DNA of 64,000 nt from a virus: IMG/VR virus record IMGVR_UViG_3300034112_000721, positions 48,532 to 112,531 of that record, one strand, 5' to 3'. This document shows, in pieces, positions 1 through 64,000 of the stretch. Position 1 is the stretch's first letter. The number at the start of each line of letters is the position of its first letter. The notes below the pieces were generated by a model. The model saw nothing but the letters and a program-made list of their open reading frames with translations, was not told the origin of the DNA and ran no database searches. The translations under genes were made by a program, and so were the position numbers.

Positions 1-2125
1 CAATGTTCATAACCCATTGCTTATATTTAGCATCAGCATCAGGATCTTTTAATTCCATTTTATCTCCATCTATGTAAATTATTTTGTTTTTTTCTTCATA
101 TGGATCTTTTTTTGATTTGAGATCAATTTCTTTTGCGTCTTGAACAAAATCACGTACAGCAAGATTTACCTCTCCAGGTTTAGTTTTAGGTGCACTAGCT
201 AATTTTTCAACTGCAGCAAGACTTTTTGGTTTTGCTGTTGCTCTAGCAGCACTAACATTACTAGAAGGTTTAGATTTATTTTCTGATTCAGAGATTGCCT
301 TAGTAATATAATTAGCCATATTACCAAGACCACCAGCAGCACCACTAGCAATTAATCTTGAAAGCTCAGCAGCTTTTTCTTTTTCTTGAAGTTGTTTTAT
401 TGGATTACCTCCTTTATCCATTCTAGTTAATGAAGGTATAGAAATGTCTTCTATTATATATCCACCTTTTCTGTATTCTTCTATTTGATTATCATCAAGT
501 TCAAGTTCAATATAACTAGGTGCTCCAATCATATTTCTTAAAAAACTCTGTGCATCAGAATCTGCAATTGAAGGATTTTCAGTTGCTATATTTCTACCAT
601 AAACATTTGTAATTGGCCTATAACCAATTTTTCTATCTTCATCTACAGCATGCTGAAATGTTTCATGTGCAGGTGATTTTAAATATTCTCCTGTATTTTG
701 ATTAATACTATATGCATGATAATAACCATCACTCTCTTTGGGTTGATCATAATTAAATTTTTCTGGTCTTCCCTCAGAATCCCAATAACCCCTTATATCA
801 TATGTAGCATCATCTGTTTGAAGATTTTCAGGAAGTGTAGCATAAAATTTTTGAAATTCTATTTCTTCTTCTGGTGACAGTTTAGTAATACCACCATTTT
901 GTTTCCTTATAAGATTACCTATAGAATGTCCATAGCTTGCTTCTGGTAATTCTACACCATCTTTAAATATTTGTCCTGCACTTCCTAATTTATTAATAAC
1001 AGATTGTTTATTATCTATATGTCTATTTATTCCCAGTTCTTTTATTTTAGCTATCTTAGCTTTATCTGATCCTGTTGCAAATATTCTATCTTCAGATATT
1101 CCCGCAGCTCTTGCTCTTTCTATCATATCTGGTGTTACTTCAGCTCTAGCAGATATTATATATTTTTCATTAGGCATGGATTGAGCCATTTGTAAACCTC
1201 TATCTGTGCTAAGTGTATCATCAAAGTCAAATGAAATTATTTCACCTCCTATTTTTTTATATTTTAACTTTTTAAGATTTTCTAAAATGCTTTCTATTCT
1301 TTGTTCTTCTTGTCTCGCCTCTCCTTCTATTGTAGATGGATTCATATACATTCTTTCCTGTGCTAAATTTAGTATTTTCTCTTCTGGCATATCAGGATTT
1401 TCTTGCATAATTTGATCAAAAGCTTGATCAAATTCAACACCTCTTCTATCATAATAAGCACCTATTGCTTCATCTGATGCAACATATGGATTAGGCCTAA
1501 GACCTACTGAACCGTATGTACTCATTTTACCATCCATATTTTGTTTATCATGAAAAAGTTCATGCGCCAACCACCAAGGATTATTTATATTTTCTATTGG
1601 ACTATTTGGATTATATGTTATAGTTCTAAATGCAGAATTATAACCTAATTGATGTTCAGGATTATTAGGATCATAATTTTTTATTGGAACATATGTTATA
1701 CCACCATCTTGAAAATATGGAGAATTAGGATCAAAGATTTTATTCTTTACAGATTTTGATTTTTTAAATAACGGGTTTTTTGTAAATAATATATTCCTAG
1801 CCATTAAGCTTTTGGAATATTTTTTAGGATACTTTTTACTACCACCTTTCTTAGCTTGTGGTATTTCATAAACCATGTCTCCTTCAAACTGATACTCATT
1901 ACCTGGAGTCATGTATTGTGCATTACCTAAATTATCTATACCCAATAAGTCATCTTCTACTCCTTTCATGGTTATCTTTCCAGTAGGTGTAGGTACTGCA
2001 GTAGGAAGACCTGGGTAATCCCATTGCCCTCTTTCAGAAACAATAAATCCTTGAGTAAATCTTTTTAACTCATTTGGACCACCGGGTAAACCAGCTTTTT
2101 CATATTTCTTAAAAGACTTCTTCAT
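1..2125 (-). CDS. Large multi-domain putative virion cargo/ejected protein, truncated at the window edge; contains zincin-like (HELFH) and HAD-like (DFDDTL) domains separated by xxGG motifs
   Basis: Absent from the ORF track because it has no stop in the window. Hand translation from ATG 2125 (TAATG overlap with the upstream stop) gives MKKSFKKYEKAGLPGGP...WWLAHELFHDKQ...ISFDFDDTLS...IISAR...HIDNK...KQWVMNI, in frame to position 2. It follows the tail muzzle gene, as crAss-like cargo genes do. Confidence 0.75.
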   Translation of the reverse strand, partial: MKKSFKKYEKAGLPGGPNELKRFTQGFIVSERGQWDYPGLPTAVPTPTGKITMKGVEDDLLGIDNLGNAQYMTPGNEYQFEGDMVYEIPQAKKGGSKKYPKKYSKSLMARNILFTKNPLFKKSKSVKNKIFDPNSPYFQDGGITYVPIKNYDPNNPEHQLGYNSAFRTITYNPNSPIENINNPWWLAHELFHDKQNMDGKMSTYGSVGLRPNPYVASDEAIGAYYDRRGVEFDQAFDQIMQENPDMPEEKILNLAQERMYMNPSTIEGEARQEEQRIESILENLKKLKYKKIGGEIISFDFDDTLSTDRGLQMAQSMPNEKYIISARAEVTPDMIERARAAGISEDRIFATGSDKAKIAKIKELGINRHIDNKQSVINKLGSAGQIFKDGVELPEASYGHSIGNLIRKQNGGITKLSPEEEIEFQKFYATLPENLQTDDATYDIRGYWDSEGRPEKFNYDQPKESDGYYHAYSINQNTGEYLKSPAHETFQHAVDEDRKIGYRPITNVYGRNIATENPSIADSDAQSFLRNMIGAPSYIELELDDNQIEEYRKGGYIIEDISIPSLTRMDKGGNPIKQLQEKEKAAELSRLIASGAAGGLGNMANYITKAISESENKSKPSSNVSAARATAKPKSLAAVEKLASAPKTKPGEVNLAVRDFVQDAKEIDLKSKKDPYEEKNKIIYIDGDKMELKDPDADAKYKQWVMNI

Positions 2126-5100
2126 TATCTTATTGACATTTCATTTTTACTATTTACAACTTTTAATATAAAGTTGATATCTCTTTCTTGTTCTGTAGCA
2201 AGTTTAGATAAAAATAAATAATTTAAGTAATGTCTAAACTTCTTTCTTTGAGTATCTAACTTAGCATAATTTAAGTTTGCATTATTCAAAGTTTTAATAT
2301 AACCATTTGGTTCTGTATTCCAAATAAATTGTTCAGAATAATTACCAAGAAGTTGTGTAGTTCCAGGAACAAGAGGTCCTGTTGGAGGGTAATCTGACCC
2401 AATTGGAAATTCTCCTCTATCTTTTGTAATATCCCAATACTGATTAAACCTATACTTATTTTCTTCTTTTGAAAATAATATATCAAATGAAGATAAGTTG
2501 GATTGATTTAATTTAGGATATTGTAATGAAAGAGTAATATTATTTTTTGGGAATATGTTTAAATTAAGATATCCAGATACTTGCTCTGTGTTAGATATAA
2601 CTGCTTGACTAAAGTTTGCATCAAGAACATGAAACTGATCTACACAGTTAAATTGTGAATATCTATAACACTCTAAGGTATATTCTATTGATCTTACAAT
2701 ACTTGGAGCAGATCCTGTATTTATTGGATACTCTATTTCAAAAGGATATTGTGTACCATAAAAATTACAGAAGTCATCACATACATCATTATGTCTCCAG
2801 ATTGTATTACCTTTTACAGTAAACAATGTTTCTTTAGATGAAAATACAAGATCTGGATGCCAATCATGATAACTAATAAATACTTGTAATTTAGGGTCAT
2901 AACTTACAGTCCATGATGCATCAACAAAAACATTTGGGTGCCCTAATGGATAATTTACTCCAAGATAATTAAACTTATTTGTTTCTGGATTATAAGATAC
3001 TTTACCTATATCCTTTCTTAACTGATAATCTTTCTTAGTAAAGTATAGTATAGATGATCTTGTATCATATCCTGCTTGAACACCAATACCAGCTACTGGA
3101 TTATCTTGATGTGGATAATCTGGAAAATCTTCTGTTAGCTTATATGGTAAAAATAAAGAAAACCACCACTTCAATCCATTTTGTGAAATTTCTTTTATAC
3201 CCTCACCATATGCAAAAAGTTTACCCTGATTCATTGATGCATAATATAATCCAGCTGGTGAGTATATTACAGATCTTATATTTTGAGATGAACCATATTC
3301 AAATGGTGCATCAGCATTTACTGCAGACTGTGGAGGATTACTAAATAAACCACCATCTCCAATAGTTACTTTTTTACCAGATAAAGTCTGTAATGTATCT
3401 ATACCTTGATAGAACAAAGGTCCTGTAGTTGGGAATGTAAAGATCATACCTGTCATACCAACAGGTTTTACCGTAGTAATTTTATCATTAAACTGTACAT
3501 AGTTTAATGGTAAATAGATCAACCAATTATTATCATAGGATTGATCATCTTGGTACAATGAGTATAACGCTCTATTTGGATAATATGTAAAACATAATTC
3601 TGCAACTTGAGGATCATAATTTGCACCTTGTGTTGATCCGGCAGAAAGATACTGTGTAAAAAACTTAGTAACACTTAATGAATAATCATAGTTATAAAAG
3701 TTACCCTTAGTAATTACTTCTGGATTCATATCAAACAGCTGTCTTAAATCTGTATATTGATATGGTATATATGGTTGTTGTGATTGTAAAGTTCCTTGTG
3801 ATCTAAAGTCTACAAGTACATTACTCTCTACAAAGAAATCTCTTACACCAGAATTAGCTAAATACATGTATGAATCCTTAACAGATAAAAATCCTGGATA
3901 GTTTCCTTCCGTATCATTTTGTCTATCATAATTATCATTATCTAAATTATAATATCCTTTTGGCATTGGACCAGTACCAAATGTTGGCTGAGGAGTTAGT
4001 AAAGATATTATATCTGCAATTGTTGTTGCAATATTACCACCAGCAGCAATTGGATTTTCATCTTTACTGTATGGTGCAGTATTCATCCAATACCTTGCTG
4101 TAGGTATATTATTATATAATGCATAGTTCCATATAGTTCCATCAGGTAAATTATATAACCAGTTGTAAAAGAAAAGCATTGTGTTCTTTTCTGTAAATCT
4201 GTTTATATAAGTATCTCCTCCAAATATAATTTCTGATGTTGGAAGAACTTTATGAAATACTTGTCCATTCAACGGGCAGTTGCCAGATGTTGGTTGAGAA
4301 ATTATATTATTAGGATCAAATTTTTGTTCACACGTTGTTGCAACAACTTGTTTAATACTATCAATTCTACCATATTGATTTTGTACATTATATTTTAATC
4401 CAACATAATGACTTGCTATATTTCCTAAAAATTGTTTAAATAATGATTCATTTTTAAAACTCATATCAAAGCTTGGAACATCAGTTGCTTTACCAAGATT
4501 AATTAATGAGTTATCTTCTTGAAAACCAATTTGCTGTGTTGATCCAACATATGTACCAACTAACTGCGGTCCTATTGTTGGAGCAATGGTAGGTGATGTG
4601 TATGTTGTATTTGGAGCAGAAGTTCTAATAAAGACTGTCTTAGGTCTAGAAAGATTATTTATTGTAAATCTTTGAAAATTACCAAATCCATTTAAATAAT
4701 CTGGAACCTCTTGATTTCTATCACTAAGATAGAACCCGTTTTCAATTTTAAATCTTTTTAAGAAATTAGTATTAGGTGCAACAAATCTTGCATAGAATCC
4801 ATGTGCTAATGATTGTAAAGCATATTGTCTAAATGGTAAAAATGCTTGAATAATTCTTAGTGTTGTATTGAACCCCTCAGTAAAATAATATGGTAACTGC
4901 ACACCAATATTTATTGCGCTTGTTGCAAAAACACCAAGCCCTAAATTATTTAAAACAGTTGCTGTATTATAATCTGTTATAAGTGTTGTTGGTGGATATA
5001 GTCCAATATTTGCATATGATTGTGCCGTTGTTTCAAAAATCTCTTCAAGCGTTAAAGATGCCGGATTACCAGGTCCAGTAATTGCACCAGAAATTTGTTG

Positions 5101-7578
5101 AGAGGCACTATTAAAATAGTTATTAAGTTGTGTATAAAAGTTAAATGCATTACTTGCAGCAGCATTTACTGTAAATGAATCAAGATCTCCTGGTGGTGGA
5201 TTTGGTGGTGTTAAGTTATTACCATTACCACCTGCAATATTCCAATAATCATATTTTTGATAAGGGACTTGAAAATCTGGAAGAGCTGGTGATGATATCT
5301 GTTTCTTACCCAATAAGTTTAATAAAGCATTTCCAAGACCAGCTATAATTGCAATATAAACCGCAGCATTACTCATCAACTGATTTTCAGGATGCTTATC
5401 TGGTATTACAAAAGAATGTACTGAGTTACCTTCTAAACTTCCATAGATTTTTAATTCAGTTTGGTTTATAAAAGGATTTCTAAAGCTAGTATCTGGAGAT
5501 GTAAATGTAAGAAGGTTTTTTGGTATACCTTGATTTACAAATGTTTCATTTCCATCTTTATCTATAGTGGTTGTTTTAATAAAAGGATCATTATAATAAT
5601 AATCATGATCTCCAATATTTGCAGTATTATCTAATGGTATTGAACAGTTAAATGGATAGTTTGCATATAGTCCTGTTCTATTACCTTTTGATTGCCCCTG
5701 TATAGGATAAGTCCTAAAGTTATTAATCATCCCTTTAGCAACTATACTAAGATTACCTTCTCTTGAACCTCTTAGTATTTCATATCCAACTATATTAGGA
5801 ATATCATTACCGTCATTATCTTTTGGGTAGATTATATTATTAAACTCTACACCCATTATTCTAATAAACTTTTTACCATCAGAAGCATTAGCATTTTCTA
5901 CTCTAAAGTGATATGTATCAGGTGTTAATGCATTATCTGGAAACTTGTGATGTCTAATAGGTTTACCACAAAGATCATATCTTGGATCTTTAGTAGCTGT
6001 CCAACACTGTGAACTTGAATTCCATATGTTAGGTTGGTTATCAGGATATATTTCTGTAGATTGCCAGTATCCCATTTTACCTTTAGCTAATACAACTCCT
6101 CCATCAGGTAATACTGGATAGTTAGGAAAGTATGTATCTGTCTGCCAAGCTGTATTTACAGTTTCAAATAATAATGTGTTATCTACAAAACTATTCTTAT
6201 CTGTATATGTATCAGCATCTTTTGTATTTGCAGGAACATTATCTGGATTTGGTGTTGGATAGTTTTCTTCTGGTCTTCCAGGAATGTGATAAGATGCAGA
6301 TTTATCTCCAGTATTGTATACCCATCTTATAAAGAAAGCATATACCTCATCTCTAAGATAACCTACTTTAGATCCTCCAGTAATATAATAGTCTTCAGGA
6401 TATTCAACTGACACCCATTTAGTATTTATCAAATTAGCAAGTGGCTGATAATTAAAATCAAATTTAGATGTGGGAGCAATTCTAAGTAAGTACTGTCCAA
6501 CATTAACTATCTGATCTGATTTCTCATATACTGGATTTAATAATGGTATAGCTGATGTTGGTATAGTTATTAATGTCTGTGGTATATCATCTAATAAGAT
6601 TGATGTTTCAGAAGTAGAATAATAACCAATCTGTTTTGCTTGAACATTTTCATTAATTGATCTAACTATTACTAATTCAAACTGCTCAAAGTTTTCAGTG
6701 TCTAAATCTAATGTTAATAGTAATGATCCTTGTGAAACATCATTAGGATTATATACTGGTTGAAGATTACTTGGAGAAAAATAATTAGTTACATTCTGAC
6801 CCTTAATAGAATATGCTACAACGGCAAAGTAAGTTCCATTTTCTAATGTACCTGTACCAGGTGCAATTGAAAGTTGAACGCATGGTGTCTGTACTAATGA
6901 TGCCAATCTTATTTTGTCACAATCTAAAAAGTTTAAATCTGTACATATTTTACAATCTCCAGGAGTACATTTTTGTTCCCATGCAGTAATTGGCCATAAT
7001 ACAGTTCCACTTGATGAAATATATCTATTATAATTTATACCTGCTGTAGCTTGATTAGAGCCACCCCATTGAAAAGATGAATCTGGCCATGTCTTTGGAT
7101 CACCAATATTTAAATATCTATCAGGATTTAAACCATCTGCCCAATACACTTCCCACTTACAATCTCCCTTTTGTCTAGAAGCTCCGGTAATTAAATTATA
7201 TGGACTAAAATTTAAACATGGTGCAGAAACAATTGGTCTATACAAACAATGTTCTTCTTCATATAAACCAATTTCAGAATTAACAGGTTTACCATTTACA
7301 GTAGCAACAGTAAATATAATCCACTTATCCGCATATAAATGTATAATACCAATAATAGCTTTATCACCCTGCATGGTCTCTCCACTTGTTCCGCAGAGAT
7401 AGTTTGAGTCCTCATTAGATAAAGTACCTAGGTTACCCTCATCAGTATTATTGACCATGTTTCTTGCATGTGTCCATAGTCCAGATGTTACAAATGATGG
7501 GTCTGTATCTTTATTTAGACCTTTAGAGAAACTATTTGTAATATTCTGAGTAGTATTTTGAAGACCTTTTTTAGCCAT
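2125..7578 (-). CDS. Tail muzzle / stabilization protein (crAss-like)
   Basis: 1817 aa; N-terminal FSKGLNKD..P...W..ARN pattern, internal YLRDEVYAFFIRW and WTVSYDP...FISYHDWHP; lies downstream of ring proteins. Confidence 0.8.
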   Translation of the reverse strand: MAKKGLQNTTQNITNSFSKGLNKDTDPSFVTSGLWTHARNMVNNTDEGNLGTLSNEDSNYLCGTSGETMQGDKAIIGIIHLYADKWIIFTVATVNGKPVNSEIGLYEEEHCLYRPIVSAPCLNFSPYNLITGASRQKGDCKWEVYWADGLNPDRYLNIGDPKTWPDSSFQWGGSNQATAGINYNRYISSSGTVLWPITAWEQKCTPGDCKICTDLNFLDCDKIRLASLVQTPCVQLSIAPGTGTLENGTYFAVVAYSIKGQNVTNYFSPSNLQPVYNPNDVSQGSLLLTLDLDTENFEQFELVIVRSINENVQAKQIGYYSTSETSILLDDIPQTLITIPTSAIPLLNPVYEKSDQIVNVGQYLLRIAPTSKFDFNYQPLANLINTKWVSVEYPEDYYITGGSKVGYLRDEVYAFFIRWVYNTGDKSASYHIPGRPEENYPTPNPDNVPANTKDADTYTDKNSFVDNTLLFETVNTAWQTDTYFPNYPVLPDGGVVLAKGKMGYWQSTEIYPDNQPNIWNSSSQCWTATKDPRYDLCGKPIRHHKFPDNALTPDTYHFRVENANASDGKKFIRIMGVEFNNIIYPKDNDGNDIPNIVGYEILRGSREGNLSIVAKGMINNFRTYPIQGQSKGNRTGLYANYPFNCSIPLDNTANIGDHDYYYNDPFIKTTTIDKDGNETFVNQGIPKNLLTFTSPDTSFRNPFINQTELKIYGSLEGNSVHSFVIPDKHPENQLMSNAAVYIAIIAGLGNALLNLLGKKQISSPALPDFQVPYQKYDYWNIAGGNGNNLTPPNPPPGDLDSFTVNAAASNAFNFYTQLNNYFNSASQQISGAITGPGNPASLTLEEIFETTAQSYANIGLYPPTTLITDYNTATVLNNLGLGVFATSAINIGVQLPYYFTEGFNTTLRIIQAFLPFRQYALQSLAHGFYARFVAPNTNFLKRFKIENGFYLSDRNQEVPDYLNGFGNFQRFTINNLSRPKTVFIRTSAPNTTYTSPTIAPTIGPQLVGTYVGSTQQIGFQEDNSLINLGKATDVPSFDMSFKNESLFKQFLGNIASHYVGLKYNVQNQYGRIDSIKQVVATTCEQKFDPNNIISQPTSGNCPLNGQVFHKVLPTSEIIFGGDTYINRFTEKNTMLFFYNWLYNLPDGTIWNYALYNNIPTARYWMNTAPYSKDENPIAAGGNIATTIADIISLLTPQPTFGTGPMPKGYYNLDNDNYDRQNDTEGNYPGFLSVKDSYMYLANSGVRDFFVESNVLVDFRSQGTLQSQQPYIPYQYTDLRQLFDMNPEVITKGNFYNYDYSLSVTKFFTQYLSAGSTQGANYDPQVAELCFTYYPNRALYSLYQDDQSYDNNWLIYLPLNYVQFNDKITTVKPVGMTGMIFTFPTTGPLFYQGIDTLQTLSGKKVTIGDGGLFSNPPQSAVNADAPFEYGSSQNIRSVIYSPAGLYYASMNQGKLFAYGEGIKEISQNGLKWWFSLFLPYKLTEDFPDYPHQDNPVAGIGVQAGYDTRSSILYFTKKDYQLRKDIGKVSYNPETNKFNYLGVNYPLGHPNVFVDASWTVSYDPKLQVFISYHDWHPDLVFSSKETLFTVKGNTIWRHNDVCDDFCNFYGTQYPFEIEYPINTGSAPSIVRSIEYTLECYRYSQFNCVDQFHVLDANFSQAVISNTEQVSGYLNLNIFPKNNITLSLQYPKLNQSNLSSFDILFSKEENKYRFNQYWDITKDRGEFPIGSDYPPTGPLVPGTTQLLGNYSEQFIWNTEPNGYIKTLNNANLNYAKLDTQRKKFRHYLNYLFLSKLATEQERDINFILKVVNSKNEMSIR

Positions 7579-8624
7579 TATATTATTCTATTGCCGGTTA
7601 AGTTTCTATAATATGCTGCATTAGGAGAATAACTTTCAAACATATAGTAATACTTACCATACATTGATTTTCTATTTGTCCACCACATCTTTTCAAGTTC
7701 CTTGAAGTTTGGTGTATTAACAACACTTAATGCTTGATTTCTAGCTGCTCTTAATCTTTGTTCAATTAACTGCATTCTTTGTGCTACATCCTCACCATTA
7801 ATATATAGGTTTTCAAGTATTCTAGATTTTAAAGCATATTCATAATATTCATTTATTAGATCATGATCTGGGACCATTAAGTATCCTTGATCATTTACCA
7901 TTTCACCTTGATAATTTAAATATACCTTACCAGTTTCAAATGTTGTAAATAGAAAACCACCTTTTATCCAACCTTGGTTTGCTGTATTAAAATAAAGATT
8001 TGGACAGTCACATTCTATTTCTTGACTAGCCTTCATTCTTAATGGTAATAAATCTGTGTAAACTCTTGTAGCTCCAGAATTATTCATTACTTGAACTAGT
8101 TCCCACTTTTCCCCTTTACAATTCATAAAAACTCTAGGTGCAATACAAGTATCACCATAAGGATTGTTTGGGTCATACTCTGTAGGTATTGGATCTACTA
8201 TAGGAAAATTAAGATCACATGCTGCAGTTTTGTTACATGGATTAGAATTACATGTTCTGCAGTTAACTGTTGGTGGTGCACACACATCTGTAGTAGATGG
8301 AGTTTCTTGGTATCTTACTTCTTGTATATTAGTTCCTGCAGACATTGGACCATATCCAACTTGTTGAACATAGTTACCGCATACTAATGCAAAGTTAAAT
8401 ACATAAAAATCATCTGGTAGTTTTACCTTACCATGACATACATCTAGAATAACTTCTTTAGTTTGATTTACCCTTAGACCAAGATCATAATTTAGTTTTT
8501 TAACCAGCTTAATTAATTGCTGAGGCTCTATCATGTTTTCTAGAGCAAAGGTGTTTAAATCAACTGTTACATCTTCTAACAATTGATCAAAAGTTCTATA
8601 TCTAAGAGTATAATTAAAATCCAT
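7578..8624 (-). CDS. Tail ring / tubular-type structural protein
   Basis: 348 aa; KVKLPDDF and GYLMVPD...EYYEY patterns of tubular/adaptor proteins, with a Cys-rich insertion; directly upstream of the muzzle gene. Confidence 0.6.
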   Translation of the reverse strand: MDFNYTLRYRTFDQLLEDVTVDLNTFALENMIEPQQLIKLVKKLNYDLGLRVNQTKEVILDVCHGKVKLPDDFYVFNFALVCGNYVQQVGYGPMSAGTNIQEVRYQETPSTTDVCAPPTVNCRTCNSNPCNKTAACDLNFPIVDPIPTEYDPNNPYGDTCIAPRVFMNCKGEKWELVQVMNNSGATRVYTDLLPLRMKASQEIECDCPNLYFNTANQGWIKGGFLFTTFETGKVYLNYQGEMVNDQGYLMVPDHDLINEYYEYALKSRILENLYINGEDVAQRMQLIEQRLRAARNQALSVVNTPNFKELEKMWWTNRKSMYGKYYYMFESYSPNAAYYRNLTGNRII

Positions 8625-9289
8625 TATCTAAGTATATTTTGACCATCATCAGGACCATCTGTTGGAACCTGCATAGTCATAGTTAATTCTTTAATTACAA
8701 ACTGCTCTACTTCAGAAAATAAATACTCTGGAATAGTTAATAATTTATCTTGTGCTATCTCACACTGTTGAGCAGGATCACACGGATCAGTTACTCCTTG
8801 AAAGATAGCCTCCATTCTAATTGCTTCCCAATCTATATTGGGGCAGTATAAATATCCATTTAAATACCAAAAATATTTTCTTGTATTATATTTAAATGTA
8901 GTAGTCTTTGTCATTGAAACCCATGTACCCGGATCTGTTCTAAACATTTCTATACTACCATCTATTGAAGATACTGTACGTATAACAGGACCAAATGTTC
9001 CTTCTAATATAGTTGGTAGTTTATCTTTTGTTCTTTTAAAATAACATCCAGAATAAACACCAAGACATCCAGCTTCTACTTTATCTACATCTATAAGTTC
9101 AAGATATGGTAATACCTGAAATATAGAGCTAATCTTCATTAGCTTGAATTGATTATCCTCTCTCTTTAAAAGAGTCTGGCCATATTTAATTAGAGAGCTA
9201 TAGATTACTCTATCAGTTAAAAAAGAATCTTCTTTAACTGCTTTTAAAGTATTTCTAACCCGTGATATTGCTTCACCTATAGTTGTCAT
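8624..9289 (-). CDS. Tail ring / adaptor structural protein
   Basis: 221 aa; crAss-like ring-protein pattern (DS.LTDR.I, YFWYLNGYLY) and gene order. Confidence 0.6.
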   Translation of the reverse strand: MTTIGEAISRVRNTLKAVKEDSFLTDRVIYSSLIKYGQTLLKREDNQFKLMKISSIFQVLPYLELIDVDKVEAGCLGVYSGCYFKRTKDKLPTILEGTFGPVIRTVSSIDGSIEMFRTDPGTWVSMTKTTTFKYNTRKYFWYLNGYLYCPNIDWEAIRMEAIFQGVTDPCDPAQQCEIAQDKLLTIPEYLFSEVEQFVIKELTMTMQVPTDGPDDGQNILR

Positions 9290-40856: not shown

Positions 40857-41161
40857 AATCTATCAATTCTTCTTTGTAAATATACTAAAGCTTTTTGTAA
40901 ATCCTCTTTCTTACTAGAAGTTTTTTTACCCGCTCTTGCTAAATATTTTATAACATTCCCCAGATAGAAATCTTCATCTAAACCCCAAGCTTCTAATACA
41001 TTAAATACTTCATAAGTATTCCCTGCACCACCATAATACTTAGGCCTATCAAGATTTATAATTCTATCTTTTAATGGTATCTCTTTAGATATTATTCTAT
41101 CAAAAGGTGTACTCATTTTACTTTGATAGAGATCTTCTGATTCTTGTGTAAAGTTTACCAT
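40853..41161 (-). CDS. DUF3310-family protein
   Basis: P.YY...FYLGNVIKYL.RAGKK...EDL.KA..YL. Confidence 0.8.
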   Translation of the reverse strand: MVNFTQESEDLYQSKMSTPFDRIISKEIPLKDRIINLDRPKYYGGAGNTYEVFNVLEAWGLDEDFYLGNVIKYLARAGKKTSSKKEDLQKALVYLQRRIDRL

Positions 41162-41430
41162 ACAATTGCAATATCTCTTTCAGCAACCATTAACTTCATT
41201 CCATCCTCAAGCTCTACTGCTTCAGATGCTTGTAACCCGGTAATTCCCATGTACACTTTATCCCCCACCTTTACACTTGATACTTCATCCCCTACTGCAT
41301 AAACTTCTAGTTTAGTCCATGTCTTTCTCATATCCATTTCAAGTGCAAGCTTGTCAGCTTCACTTAATTCAAATGGAGATTCTTTTACTTCTGGTTTATT
41401 TAATAAAACCCTTTTTCCTTTTAGTTGCAT
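41155..41430 (-). CDS. groES: GroES-like co-chaperonin
   Basis: L.GKRVLL...V.AVG..V..VKVGD.V...ERDI; likely ATG start at 41430 rather than the TTG at 41535, which overlaps the promoter. Confidence 0.7.
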   Translation of the reverse strand: MQLKGKRVLLNKPEVKESPFELSEADKLALEMDMRKTWTKLEVYAVGDEVSSVKVGDKVYMGITGLQASEAVELEDGMKLMVAERDIAIVW

Positions 41431-43438: not shown

Positions 43439-43570
43439 TTATTTCCGGATACTAGTCTTACTATAAGCATCACACTTTTGAGTAGACTTACATCCCGTCA
43501 TAAGATACCCTATAGCCAAACCTATGCATATACCAAATACACATAAGCAAAATACTTTCCATTTTTCCAT
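43439..43570 (-). CDS. Small lipoprotein, 43 aa
   Basis: Hand translation MEKWKVFCLCVFGICIGLAIGYLMTGCKSTQKCDAYSKTSIRK; promoter motif upstream. Confidence 0.65.
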   Translation of the reverse strand: MEKWKVFCLCVFGICIGLAIGYLMTGCKSTQKCDAYSKTSIRK

Positions 43571-43879
43571 ACAACAAATATAATAAAATAACAAAGGCCC
43601 GGGCTTTCAACTCCAGACCTTTGTACCAGTATTAACCAAATAATATAGCATGACAAATATACAACTGTATTTTAATATTCCAAACCGGTGGTAAAAATAT
43701 TTTGTTTTAGAGATTGTTAGGGACCCCTAGTAGCCAGACCCCCCCACCTGCCGCGCTTGGTGCTACCCCCTACTTCTTTCTACTAGACATGTTGAATTGT
43801 AGAATAATTTGTAAATGTTTTACAGCTGGAAGTTTCTGGTACTTCTTTCTACAGATGTTGAATCATTAAAATTTTTATC

Positions 43880-44110
43880 ATGAAAAAGTTACTTGTTACT
43901 GTTATGTTCTTTGCTGTTTTGTTTGGTGTACCAATGATGTTTTATTGGGTAGTGTTCTATATATTATATATGGGCTTTGCGGTAGATATTGTTATTAGCT
44001 TCTTGATATCTCTTATGGGTAGTGTGACCATGTTTCTTGGACTTGTTAAGGTTGCTGAGAAGTTAGTTAATAAGGGTTTGGATATATACATTATTGATAT
44101 GAGAAGATAA
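43880..44110 (+). CDS. Small two-TM early membrane protein
   Basis: ORF track; promoter motif upstream and hairpin downstream. Confidence 0.65.
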   Translation: MKKLLVTVMFFAVLFGVPMMFYWVVFYILYMGFAVDIVISFLISLMGSVTMFLGLVKVAEKLVNKGLDIYIIDMRR

Positions 44111-44152
44111 GGGCTTTGCCCTTTCTTCTTGTACTTCTTCTTACTTGTTTAG

Positions 44153-44255
44153 AATATAACAAGGAATGTTTCCTGGGGGAGCAAGGCCAGCCGTGGCTAC
44201 TGCTTAATATACCTACGAGAGGAAGTCCTACGGAAACACTTGTTATATTTTTTTT
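44153..44255 (+). ncRNA. Candidate structured ncRNA 1
   Basis: AATATAACAAG/CTTGTTATATT and TGTTTCC/GGAAACA stems enclose two GC-rich hairpins; ends in a T-run; no ORF. Confidence 0.6.
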
Positions 44256-44297
44256 ATACTTCTTCTTACTTGTGTTAAACTATTAAAATTATTTATT

Positions 44298-44447
44298 ATG
44301 AAAGATTTTGTTAACTATTTGATTGCTGTTGTATCTATGGGTTGTATAACAGGTTTACTTGTTTCTATGGGATCTCAGATCTTATTAGCTATGGGAATTA
44401 TGTCTTTATTTTGGGCAGGTATGTTTGCGCCAATGTTAAGGGGATAA
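44298..44447 (+). CDS. Small hydrophobic protein, 49 aa
   Basis: Hand translation MKDFVNYLIAVVSMGCITGLLVSMGSQILLAMGIMSLFWAGMFAPMLRG; sits in a promoter/terminator cassette. Confidence 0.65.
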   Translation: MKDFVNYLIAVVSMGCITGLLVSMGSQILLAMGIMSLFWAGMFAPMLRG

Positions 44448-44499
44448 TTCCCCTTTTATACTTCTTTGTACTTATTAAGAACCAATAAAATTTTATGCT

Positions 44500-44574
44500 A
44501 TGGGAACTGTAACTTATGTTATTATCAATGGAGTTTTAACTGTTAAGTCTTGGGTAAAGAACCCCAATGCTTAA
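44500..44574 (+). CDS. 24-aa micropeptide MGTVTYVIINGVLTVKSWVKNPNA
   Basis: Only sizeable ORF between promoter motif 44459 and the terminator at 44586. Confidence 0.5.
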   Translation: MGTVTYVIINGVLTVKSWVKNPNA

Positions 44575-44585
44575 TGGTTTAAGTT

Positions 44586-44612
44586 AAGGGAGAGCAATCT
44601 CCCTTTTCTTTT
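44586..44612 (+). terminator. Intrinsic terminator
   Basis: AAGGGAGA-GCAA-TCTCCCTT followed by TTCTTTT. Confidence 0.8.
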
Positions 44613-44654
44613 GTACTTATTTATACATATTAGAAACCAATAAATTATTTACTT

Positions 44655-44822
44655 ATGGAAGAGACCAGATTAGTTATGACTTGGGAAGAATACAAGTTAC
44701 TATTAGATGTATTAAACCATGTATATCACCAGACAGATTACAAACCAATAAATGATTTGTATGTCAAGTTATACATGCAGATGAATGCGCGTAAAGTAGA
44801 AGATATAGAGTTACCCTTTTAA
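44655..44822 (+). CDS. Small early protein, 55 aa
   Basis: Hand translation MEETRLVMTWEEYKLLLDVLNHVY...VEDIELPF; sits in a cassette. Confidence 0.65.
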   Translation: MEETRLVMTWEEYKLLLDVLNHVYHQTDYKPINDLYVKLYMQMNARKVEDIELPF

Positions 44823-44846
44823 TAGGGTAATTCTTTCTACTTATTT

Positions 44847-44996
44847 AATAAAAGTTAGCCAAGGAATGTAAAGTGTTTTACCGGTGGAGAAAGTAGACTT
44901 TGGTGCTGATAATCAAGCACTTACAAAAAGCAAGTTTTTACACAAATTAATACCGCACAAAGCCTTGCTTATTTTGTCCTTCGGACAGCTTTTATT
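44847..44996 (+). ncRNA. Candidate structured ncRNA 2
   Basis: AATAAAAGTT/AGCTTTTATT ends pair; CAAGG/CCTTG; UUCG hairpin; shares CAAGGAATGT with ncRNA 1; no convincing ORF. Confidence 0.45.
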
Positions 44997-45044
44997 ATAC
45001 TTCTTTTTACTGTTTTAGATTATTAACCTTTTAATTTATTTATT

Positions 45045-45380
45045 ATGTCTAAAATTAATTTTAGTGAAACAAAGTCCTTGGTTGAATTCTTTGGTCAAAT
45101 ATCTGCTACTGATTTGCAGATTTGTCAAAGTAAAAGAACAGGTGGGTTATATGTAGTATTCAAATGTGCTGATGGTACAGAACAGAATGCTATGTTGGCA
45201 AAGTCTATATCTAATATAGATGCTAACAATGCTGCTGATTTGCAAGTATCTTGGATAGAAGGTACTACAGAAACAGGTAACCCATTGGAAGGTTTTATGA
45301 TTCATCCAACAGGTGAGCGTAAAGTTGTATCCAACTTTAGCCTTGCAGACCTTACTGCAAAGGTTGGTGCTATTGGTTAA
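45045..45380 (+). CDS. Hypothetical early protein
   Basis: ORF track; promoter motif upstream and terminator downstream. Confidence 0.7.
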   Translation: MSKINFSETKSLVEFFGQISATDLQICQSKRTGGLYVVFKCADGTEQNAMLAKSISNIDANNAADLQVSWIEGTTETGNPLEGFMIHPTGERKVVSNFSLADLTAKVGAIG

Positions 45381-45391
45381 TAGTACAACAA

Positions 45392-45425
45392 GAGATAGTG
45401 TCAGAAATGACACTATCTTTTTTTT
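45392..45425 (+). terminator. Intrinsic terminator
   Basis: AGATAGTGTCA-GAAA-TGACACTATCT followed by a T-run. Confidence 0.85.
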
Positions 45426-45716
45426 ATATTGCCTTCGGCAGCTTTTGTTTTACTTCTTTCTACTTAGTGTGGTAGGATATGTGTAGAGACAAGAACCTGT
45501 TATATGTATAATTTTTTTTATTTGGCTGTTACTAACCCAAGTTACTGTCAAAATATCTCTTACGCGCGTGTATGTTTGTTTAAATAAGTGATAGTATCTT
45601 GTTTATAGTAAACCTATTACACTATTCTCTACCACTAATAACTCTCTATATTCTATATATAATACTTTAGTATTATAACAAGATTTTATATAGCTAACCC
45701 TTTAATCTTATTACCT

Positions 45717-45944
45717 ATGCTTAGAACTACTTACTTCCTAATAGGAATGTTATTCTCTTCCTTAGTATATGCTCTATTACTCTCTATAGAAGAAACACAG
45801 AGAGAGCTTCCGGTTAAAGGTATAGACCGGGAATATTATTTAGAAGTTACCGGTGATAGTATCTTCTTAGAATCTAGACAAGGACAAATCTACCGTGGTA
45901 AGTACTCAGACTTAGACAGTCTTATTAATGTAGATAACTTGTAA
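45717..45944 (+). CDS. Hypothetical membrane-anchored protein
   Basis: N-terminal hydrophobic helix. Confidence 0.55.
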   Translation: MLRTTYFLIGMLFSSLVYALLLSIEETQRELPVKGIDREYYLEVTGDSIFLESRQGQIYRGKYSDLDSLINVDNL

Positions 45945-46059
45945 CAACTATGAACCACAGTATGAGTATTCTCTACTAACACATCTAGCGGACTGTGGTT
46001 TCCCGTTAAACTAATTACCTCTATATATATTTTATTAACCCGTTTAAATTTTATTTACT

Positions 46060-46722: not shown

Positions 46723-46796
46723 AGTCCCATAGCTCAACTGGATAGAGCAACACACTTCTAATGTGTAGGTTACAGGTTCGACTCCTGTTGGGACTA
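46723..46796 (+). tRNA. tRNA-Arg (anticodon TCT)
   Basis: AGTCCCA/TGGGACT acceptor, GCTC/GAGC D-stem, ACACA-CTTCTAA-TGTGT anticodon arm, ACAGG-TTCGACT-CCTGT T-arm; CCA not encoded. Confidence 0.95.
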
Positions 46797-46820
46797 CTTC
46801 TATTCACTAAAATTAATTAC

Positions 46821-63146: not shown

Positions 63147-64000
63147 ATGATTTCTACAAAGAATTTAATATATGATTTAGCTGATGTCCCAAGAGAGTGG
63201 GTATTTGAACACTATCTAAACCTTACTGAAAAACTTACAGGTCAGGATATTAAAATAAAGTCTGTATTTAATACACGGGAGAAAACACCTTCTATGTGTA
63301 TTTATATTGACAGAAATAATATTTATAAGTTTAAAGATTTTTCTTCAGGTAATGGTGGTGATGCAATTAGTCTTGTCCAAAATTTATTTAATTTACCTAC
63401 TAGAGGTTCTGCAAGTTATAAGATTATTGAAGACTATAACCAATATGTTCTAAACAATGGTTATAATCCTATTAAATCTTACAAACAGCACAGTAAGTTT
63501 AAAGTTACTGATTATGAAATGCGGCACTGGAATACTCTTGATCAAAAATATTGGATGGGATTTCACATTGGTTCTAGATTGTTGTCTAGATATAATGTTG
63601 TTCCACTAGAATATTATGTGATGACAAAGACAGATGAAAATGATGTTGTGTCAAGCATAACTATCAGGGGTAACTATATCTATGGGTATTTTAGAGAAGA
63701 CGGGACACTCTATAAGATCTATCAGCCAAAGGTTAAAGAAAGTAAATTTATCAAGGTAAGAGATTATATACAGGGTACGGAACAATTAGTATTTGATAAA
63801 CCTTATTTGATAATTACATCTTCCCTTAAAGATCTGATGGCATATCAAAAACTAAAGATTAGTAATTCAGAAGTAATTGCACCAGACAGTGAGAATACTA
63901 TGATACCTGAGAACATAATGAATAGCATTAGTTCTAAGTATCAAAAAGTATGTGTGTTGTTTGATAATGATGAGGCTGGTATAAAAGCTGCTGAGAAGTA
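63147..64000 (+). CDS. DNA primase, truncated at the window edge
   Basis: Hand translation MISTKNL...EKTPSM...FKDFSSG.GGD...ITSSLKD.M...APDSE...LFDNDEAG (Toprim DxD). Confidence 0.85.
   Translation, partial: MISTKNLIYDLADVPREWVFEHYLNLTEKLTGQDIKIKSVFNTREKTPSMCIYIDRNNIYKFKDFSSGNGGDAISLVQNLFNLPTRGSASYKIIEDYNQYVLNNGYNPIKSYKQHSKFKVTDYEMRHWNTLDQKYWMGFHIGSRLLSRYNVVPLEYYVMTKTDENDVVSSITIRGNYIYGYFREDGTLYKIYQPKVKESKFIKVRDYIQGTEQLVFDKPYLIITSSLKDLMAYQKLKISNSEVIAPDSENTMIPENIMNSISSKYQKVCVLFDNDEAGIKAAEK

Follow-up and report, generated by a model that had tools for sequence, protein, structure and literature searches.

Location and fold of the RNA unit

The window, that is, the whole 64,000-nt stretch of DNA that was analysed, makes up the right-hand portion of an IMG/VR genome that is 112.5 kb long and bears direct terminal repeats. 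The terminase shares ~25% identity with its counterparts in Bacteroides, Flavobacterium and Cellulophaga crAss-like phages, the portal and capsid proteins match PHROGs annotated as portal and major head protein, and a 1817-aa ORF (2125-7578, - strand) contains the crAss muzzle-protein domain PF25731; by these sequence matches the phage is a distant crAss-like phage. Up to ~43.6 kb its genes point leftward and include those for structural and lysis proteins and for a 91-aa GroES-like co-chaperonin (41155-41430, - strand), a protein which is common to all lineages bearing the RNA described here and whose orthologue in lineage L165 matches Cpn10. Beyond that point the genes run rightward, starting with a string of tiny units, behind which come the ParB-like, helicase and primase genes. 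The GC-skew minimum is at ~44 kb, near this strand switch. Exactly at the switch, just ahead of the first copy of a promoter-like motif, sits an island that is GC-rich and contains C-runs (43717-43770); it is kept with changes in L005 and L048.

Within the string of tiny units, the unit at 44153-44255 (+ strand) is predicted by RNAfold to form a three-armed RNA around a three-way junction, ~100 nt long with its outer stem and with a conserved core of ~77 nt. The unit and its immediate surroundings comprise the following elements.

44109-44123, + strand: terminator hairpin of the upstream 76-aa gene, AAGGGCTTTGCCCTT and then a T-rich tail (terminator scan)
44132-44148, + strand: promoter-like motif TACTTCTTCTTACTTGT heading the RNA unit (direct reading, motif scan)
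44153-44163, + strand: 5′ strand of P0, AAUAUAACAAG, an 11-bp outer closing stem whose partner is 44239-44249 (RNAfold, covariation)
44164-44166, + strand: GAA bulge, which is GAA or CAA in P0-bearing homologues (RNAfold, alignment)
44167-44173, + strand: 5′ strand of P1, UGUUUCC, a 7-bp stem (covariation)
44174-44178, + strand: 5′ strand of P1b, the G-run UGGGG; GGGGGAG is almost invariant (alignment)
44179-44205, + strand: P2 hairpin, GAGCA-A-GGCCA-GCCG-UGGCU-AC-UGCUU (RNAfold, covariation)
44206-44211, + strand: junction AAUAUA; CUUAAUA(U/C)ACC is invariant save for the single U/C position
44212-44222, + strand: P3 hairpin, CCUACGAGAGG, read as CCU-ACGAG-AGG, invariant (alignment, 23S comparison)
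44223-44231, + strand: junction AAG, its first base being A, U, C or G, then UCCUA, the 3′ strand of P1b, and a bulged C (alignment)
44232-44238, + strand: 3′ strand of P1, GGAAACA (covariation)
44239-44249, + strand: 3′ strand of P0, CUUGUUAUAUU (RNAfold, covariation)
44248-44255, + strand: run of eight Ts at the end of the closing stem, a terminator-like 3′ end (direct reading)
44257-44273, + strand: second copy of TACTTCTTCTTACTTGT, heading the unit of a 49-aa membrane microprotein (44298-44447) (motif scan)

The minimum free energy of the RNA unit is -35 kcal/mol, compared with -21.4 ± 3.0 for shuffled sequences (z = -4.49, with none of 200 dinucleotide shuffles as good), and its minus strand gives a weaker fold (z = -3.1). 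An earlier note made from the DNA letters had described an ORF-less three-way-junction RNA that is GC-rich relative to its flanks, lies between two identical motifs and ends in a T-run, and that could be recognised neither as a tRNA nor as a hammerhead. This description held up on closer inspection. The two motifs are identical 17-mers (44132-44148 and 44257-44273), RNAfold of 44153-44255 reproduced every element that had been listed, the T-run is present, and the GC content is 0.41 as against ~0.32 across the window. The lone overlapping ORF, a 56-aa TTG frame, is disrupted by 1-nt indels in homologues, and the results of the class searches given below agree that the unit is neither a tRNA nor a hammerhead.

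Comparison with known RNA families

The Rfam search that had been proposed along with that description produced no match of the unit to a known family: with the 4227 models of Rfam 15, nothing overlapped 44153-44255 at the gathering score or at E values up to 10, and at the loci of the other members only tRNAs were found. ARAGORN and RF00005 placed no tRNA or tmRNA at the RNA unit, the sole tRNA found being a tRNA-Arg at 46723-46797. A hammerhead was rejected because the junctions (UGGGGGA, AAUAUA and AAG-UCCUAC) contain no CUGANGA/GAAA core and because neither RF00008 nor RF00163 gave a match. A protein-coding microgene was likewise discarded, the longest ATG frame being 13 aa and the homologues showing 1-nt indels together with paired substitutions.

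Two kinds of RNA invite a closer comparison. Y RNAs and bacterial YrlA resemble the unit in their paired 5′ and 3′ ends, in a long bulged stem that bears a structured module, in a U-rich tail and in an action that is thought to go through protein binding. The present unit, however, has no tRNA-like module and its stem sequences are unrelated, and a Y RNA was rejected since the phage genome encodes neither TROVE nor RtcB and no Rfam Y_RNA/YrlA match was obtained. The cultured crAss-like phage phi14:2 makes abundant and unusually stable non-coding RNAs from two intergenic regions in its early arm (bioRxiv 10.1101/2020.03.07.982082). These are, like the RNA unit, intergenic, non-coding and located in the early arm of a crAss-like Bacteroidota phage; they are described, however, as long intergenic RNAs. 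The family model of the present RNA (R2, see below) had no match in nt 1-9000 of phi14:2, which speaks for no homology to the RNA family.

Homologues, covariation and selection

Homologues were sought by exact-pattern scans with pieces of the core over IMG/VR and the JGI/ENA metagenomes. After six chance matches had been dropped (L178, L182, L186, L189, L199 and L201), ~20 distinct variants of the RNA remained, in ~40 uncultured viral or metagenome contigs from freshwater and marine sources with quite different flanks. All members were found by sequence patterns derived from the core, so that the apparent invariance reported below is inflated. Searches of other kinds returned nothing further: BLAST and a single-sequence covariance model found nothing but identical copies in 160 loci gathered via neighbouring proteins, the single-sequence model R1 gave identical copies and plain terminators and nothing else in 80 related loci, and R2 gave no homologue in 96 related loci, which included phi14:2 nt 1-9000. 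A second match of R2 in the phage's own genome (window ~63350-63423, 17.7 bits) lies inside the primase ORF and was regarded as noise. No copy of the RNA was present in 50,697 GenBank phage records (blastn) or, by pattern scan, in 185,579 prokaryote species represented by one genome each in GTDB; the lone match of a second, looser GTDB pattern, in a Saccharibacteria coding sequence without P3, was put down to chance. Judging from these sequence searches, the RNA family was found only in uncultured crAss-like environmental phages within the collections searched.

The core, CCUGGGGGAGCAAGGCCAGCCGUGGCUACUGCUUAAUAUACCUACGAGAGGnAGUCCUACGG, is almost constant across variants, with ~40 core positions invariant, and the stems change pairwise. 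P1 takes the forms UGUUUCC/GGAAACA, UGUAUCC/GGAUACA, UAUUUCC/GGAAAUA, UGUUUUC/GAAAACA, CAGUUAUCC/GGAUAACUG and CUAUUC/GAAUAG; P2a is GAGCA/UGCUU, GAGCG/CGCUU, GAGUA/UACUU or GAGUGU/ACACUU; and P2b is GGCC/GGCU or GGCU/AGCU. In an alignment of 20 sequences, pairing is kept in 90% of the cells at paired positions, where shuffles give 80.6% and slid partners 37-48%, and double changes occur at 20 pairs, a score that was matched by none of 500 shuffles. Covariation among homologues, which had been set beforehand as a test of the RNA, is present in P1 (7 of 7 pairs, with 95% of cells paired), in P2 (100% of cells paired, with compensatory changes from C-G to U-A or from A-U to G-C at three pairs) and, within the P0-bearing homologues, in P0 (double changes at 10 of 11 pairs). 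P1b has one-sided changes only, that is, no covariation, so its pairing is neither supported nor contradicted. P3 is constant in all members, including those found with patterns that did not require it, and because it never varies its pairing is unproven by covariation. RNAalifold on the alignment gave the same three-way junction, as did each of the 20 distinct variants when folded singly, with the P3 loop predicted to be unpaired. P2 has two G.U pairs that never or hardly ever vary, and a third G.U pair is kept in 14 of the 20 variants, which fixes the plus strand as the RNA strand; an RNA from the minus strand was rejected, since it has the worse fold and its G.U pairs would turn into A.C.

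When the window lineage is compared with that of L165, the RNA core is ~97% identical and the neighbouring GroES-like protein only 33% identical. Such conservation of the core points to strong purifying selection, or else to recent transfer with subsequent selection on the core only.

Promoter-like motifs and the cassette array

The RNA unit belongs to an array of nine or ten units, from 43771 to ~45500, which are headed by the motif TA(C/A)TTnTTnnTAC and most of which are preceded by a terminator hairpin. A motif scan gave 11 matches window-wide where 3.2 were expected, eight of them being clustered on the plus strand in 43771-45463, and further, looser copies are present in the array. In the region 43500-46000 a terminator scan detected 10 terminator-like sites, compared with 1.5 expected. 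The RNA is found directly behind the lineage's own promoter-like motif in five phage lineages, as follows.

Window lineage: RNA behind TACTTCTTnnTAC
L169/L175: RNA behind AACATCTTwTTAC, which has 11 copies, the others lying 20-45 nt upstream of ATG codons
L211: RNA behind TCATCTTTATAC, which has 6 copies and is also found ahead of small ORFs
L161: RNA behind ACTGGTCATAC...ACTGCTCCC
L165/L172: RNA behind the sigma-70-like TTTACG-17-TATAAT

P0 begins 7-8 nt downstream of the TAC of the motif (window, L169/L175 and L211), so that the 5′ end of the transcript probably coincides with the start of the closing stem. At the 3′ end the RNA has U8 in the window and U5 in L169, and in L206 a separate GC hairpin with a T-run follows 10 nt downstream. 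Several other members have no U-tract or obvious terminator right after the stem, and their 3′ ends may therefore come from processing. From this arrangement we infer that the RNA forms a transcription unit of its own, driven by the lineage-specific promoter-like motif. Its expression would be early, as judged solely by its position at the start of the small-ORF and replication arm, by the strand switch.

The order of units was tabulated in six near-identical relatives. In L083 it is leader, 65-aa gene, RNA, 47-aa, 67-aa and 24-aa genes, a 163-nt ORF-less unit, 55-aa gene, a 170-nt ORF-less unit and 111-aa gene. The array of L084 is that of L083 minus exactly the 125-nt RNA unit; L085 and L086 are also without it and have a 94-aa gene where L083 has the 47-aa and 67-aa units, and the window array has neither the 67-aa nor the 163-nt unit. 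Because its presence or absence among close relatives is exact to the unit, the RNA unit is a discrete and dispensable module. The order of the RNA relative to the small genes also differs between L165 and L162/L179. Small lipoproteins and a 77-80-aa membrane protein are encoded upstream of the RNA in L165/L172 and downstream of it in L162/L179; the lipoproteins are one of 46 aa with LTSCSS and one of 62 aa with ALGSCGTT (L165) or ALVSC (L172, L179).

Gene shuffling of a comparable kind is known from the PeSL of T4-type phages (PMC2839356, PMC4122927), where short accessory units lie between repeated composites of terminator hairpin and promoter. The RNA cassette is similarly inserted, deleted or swapped exactly at the motif, with identical 17-mers on both sides and with L084 and L083 differing by the exact 125-nt unit. 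However, the phages are of another order and the motif is a different one, and PeSL units carry ORFs whereas the RNA cassette carries a structured RNA; the PeSL likeness accounts for the movement of the cassette and not for the job of the RNA. The suggestion made at the outset, of a novel small RNA in its own cassette, is borne out by the lack of a family match, the strong covariation, the lineage-specific motif and the clean unit-length indel. As far as sequence comparison can tell, this is a genuine structured RNA family of crAss-like phages, matching no described family and residing on a mobile accessory cassette. Its newness concerns the RNA family, which has no known relative.

Resemblance to the sarcin-ricin loop

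The P3 hairpin CCUACGAGAGG contains UACGAGAGG(A), which equals E. coli 23S rRNA 2656-2665, the apex of the sarcin-ricin loop (helix 95, H95). Among the local matches between the RNA and E. coli 23S rRNA this 10-mer identity ranks first, and TACGAGAGG occurs in that rRNA once, at nt 2656-2664. The letters of P3 include the GAGA tetraloop of the sarcin-ricin loop with its closing C-G and the flanking A and G (23S 2657-2664); they also agree with an adjacent sheared A.G. The P3 loop is predicted to be exposed, and it is invariant. Yet the likeness spans 9-10 nt only. The bulged-G module of the sarcin-ricin loop (AGUA/GAA) is missing from P3, where CCUA replaces AGUA, as is the lower stem of H95, and P3 is set in a three-way junction of 77 nt. 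The base after GAGAGG is A, U, C or G among homologues, from which it follows that the U.A pair of the real sarcin-ricin loop is not kept. A GNRA loop with a closing C-G is a common structural element, and the loop of P3, being of the GNRA type, may simply serve for docking within the RNA itself.

With the family model, the best match in 23S rRNA is the stem of helix 91, CCUGGGG...GUCCCAAGG (13.7 bits, E ~0.004 in a 7-kb search), which is a weak match, a chance coding match elsewhere scoring 14.0 bits. Helix 91 touches helix 95 in the ribosome (PMC2952862). A likeness of the RNA to 23S nt 772-788 (15 of 17 positions, E 0.94) was dismissed as chance. Bacterial activities directed at the sarcin-ricin loop do exist, among them the toxin VapC20, which attacks it (as cited in PMC7781912), and an Rhs ADP-ribosyltransferase aimed at it (as cited in bioRxiv 10.1101/2024.02.24.581848).

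Possible functions of the RNA

The unit is very probably a real RNA gene. What best explains it overall, with a probability of about 0.55, is a stand-alone gene for a stable, structured RNA that would act in trans by binding a protein. The RNA would be transcribed rightward from the promoter-type motif of the phage and would end at the closing stem and U-tract. In its fold, the closing helix P1, which is variable and in many members lengthened by P0, holds the near-invariant core with the covarying P2 and the invariant P3, and it is through the invariant core that a protein would be bound. The cassette itself would be gained, lost and moved via recombination between copies of the promoter/terminator motifs. 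Observed here were the fold, its covariation, a family that occurs in phages only, the location behind promoter-like motifs and the indel of the cassette; they fit such a gene, for which transcription as an RNA, early timing, stability of the product and protein binding would have to be assumed, and for its most specific version a decoy role besides. Covariation this strong together with an invariant core usually means that an RNA has a defined biochemical job, as a ribozyme, an aptamer or a protein mimic.

In that most specific version, the RNA would be an off-ribosome decoy or surrogate substrate for a factor that recognises the sarcin-ricin loop, the candidate targets being a GTPase of translation or assembly and, among host ribotoxins, one that belongs to a toxin-antitoxin or defence system. 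A decoy for a host RNA-binding or defence protein had been suggested at the outset, and the sarcin-ricin apex in P3, which that earlier note did not mention, gives this hypothesis one concrete lead. We regard a sarcin-ricin-loop decoy as a tentative proposal that has a real but lesser chance of being correct. Equally tentative is the joint reading in which the RNA is a minimal off-ribosome replica of the sarcin-ricin-loop surface, maybe with an H91-like stem, which is carried on a shuffled accessory cassette and which might draw away a host defence enzyme directed at the loop or sequester a GTPase of translation or assembly. As a decoy against a catalytic toxin, the RNA would have to be present in many copies or to bind tightly. 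Host systems are known to be disarmed by phage RNA mimics, namely the pseudo-ToxI of phage phiTE and the RNA anti-CRISPRs, and in these, too, a small phage RNA ties up a host protein by imitating a host RNA; they copy antitoxin repeats or CRISPR repeats, however, whereas the RNA unit would copy rRNA. To our knowledge, there is no published case of a phage small RNA imitating rRNA against a ribosome-directed host factor, and no earlier description of a sarcin-ricin-loop decoy RNA or of the function of a crAss ncRNA was found in the literature. If the replica were real, it would amount to mimicry of rRNA at the RNA level as a device of counter-defence or takeover, and a functional sarcin-ricin likeness would hint at undiscovered defence toxins of Bacteroidota that target this loop.

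Several other explanations have to be weighed against a trans-acting protein-binding RNA. It could be that the RNA is catalytic, for instance a new self-cleaving ribozyme in which the junction bases form the active site and the GAGA loop makes an intramolecular tertiary contact. Covarying stems around many invariant junction bases are typical of small ribozymes, the several members without a terminator would fit processed ends, and the early region that holds the RNA in L165-type phages also contains, ~640 nt upstream of it, a complete hammerhead core. This element (L165:6852-6914, - strand), at the start of the early arm, has three stems and the core CUGAUGAG...CGAAAC...GUC; Weinberg et al. 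are said to have found new ribozyme classes through such association in 2015. However, the neighbour is confined to one lineage and stays under the gathering score of RF00008 (27 bits, E 0.0095), and the RNA itself matches no Rfam ribozyme model even at E up to 10, has no CUGANGA/GAAA hammerhead core and offers no proposable cleavage site, while the window unit looks complete from promoter to terminator. A ribozyme thus seems unlikely to us, and to the same degree so does a cis-acting regulatory RNA, be it a ligand aptamer with the closing stem and U-tract as terminator or a put-like antiterminator that modifies the polymerase. One could cite for a cis-acting RNA the aptamer-like architecture with its invariant junction, the U8 directly after the closing stem, the terminator behind nearly every unit of the array and the location of the RNA near the array start in all lineages. 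But the next gene has a full copy of the promoter-like motif in front of it, and the downstream genes vary by lineage, on which two grounds a riboswitch or cis-leader was rejected; furthermore, L084 retains the same downstream units without the RNA, no Rfam riboswitch was matched, and the pairing of the 5′ end with the 3′ end suggests that a stable RNA is released.

A base-pairing sRNA directed at host or phage mRNAs, via the invariant single-stranded junction CUUAAUAUACC or the loops, would agree with a stand-alone unit that has a promoter and a terminator and with the presence of invariant unpaired stretches. Nevertheless, a seed requires far fewer than the ~40 invariant positions, which here are distributed among stems, loops and junctions, and the RNA has more structure than typical sRNAs, which makes this explanation a still less probable one. 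By far the least probable is that there is no RNA gene at all, and that the unit is a DNA-level element, such as a recombination or replication hairpin or an elaborate terminator, or a decayed remnant. Its vicinity to the strand switch and to the GC-skew minimum at ~44 kb, and its T-run end, might be explained in this way. On the other hand, the G.U pairs exist on the plus strand only, the compensatory changes are of the RNA type and the core is preserved amid unrelated flanks, and a plain terminator would not hold 40 invariant internal bases where a neighbouring protein is 33% identical. A DNA-level element is effectively excluded because of the RNA-type covariation.

The RNA is a dispensable cassette among microgenes for host takeover, and the 'ORFan' early arrays of these crAss-like phages appear to trade RNA genes as well. 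The 77-nt core is a compact and synthesisable object for testing.

Other ORF-less elements near the RNA

At 44846-44996 (+ strand) there is a second unit without an ORF, headed by a motif of its own and ending in a UUCG-hairpin terminator; it is found in L083, L084, L204 and L205. It has the 10-mer CAAGGAATGT in common with the RNA; a two-member family of both was set aside as unproven, the fold of the second unit having a z of -1.8. The window is without the 163-nt ORF-less unit (L005:5318-5470, - strand; also in L083 and L084) whose neighbours are the 24-aa and 55-aa genes. This unit has CCUACGAGA too, and its fold is weak (z = -1.15).

In L165, at ~5935-6040 (- strand), there is a non-coding element with a closed stem and a variable interior, AAAGAGAGUUGGYUAGUGCAC...UACAGAGAUA...CUGUACUCUCUUUU. 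The same element follows directly 3′ of the RNA in L168 and L194, with two copies in L194, and it looks like a second RNA family travelling with the first. Another conserved element without an ORF is located ~20-150 nt 3′ of the RNA in L166 and L172, where it is closed by UUGCGGACAA...UUCCGCAA and contains GGGCCAUAAGCC. Motif-headed ORF-less units are also present at 45451-45700 (+ strand) of the window and at +318 (L169) and +899 (L211) from the RNA, and since there are several of them, such units appear to be a regular part of the arrays.
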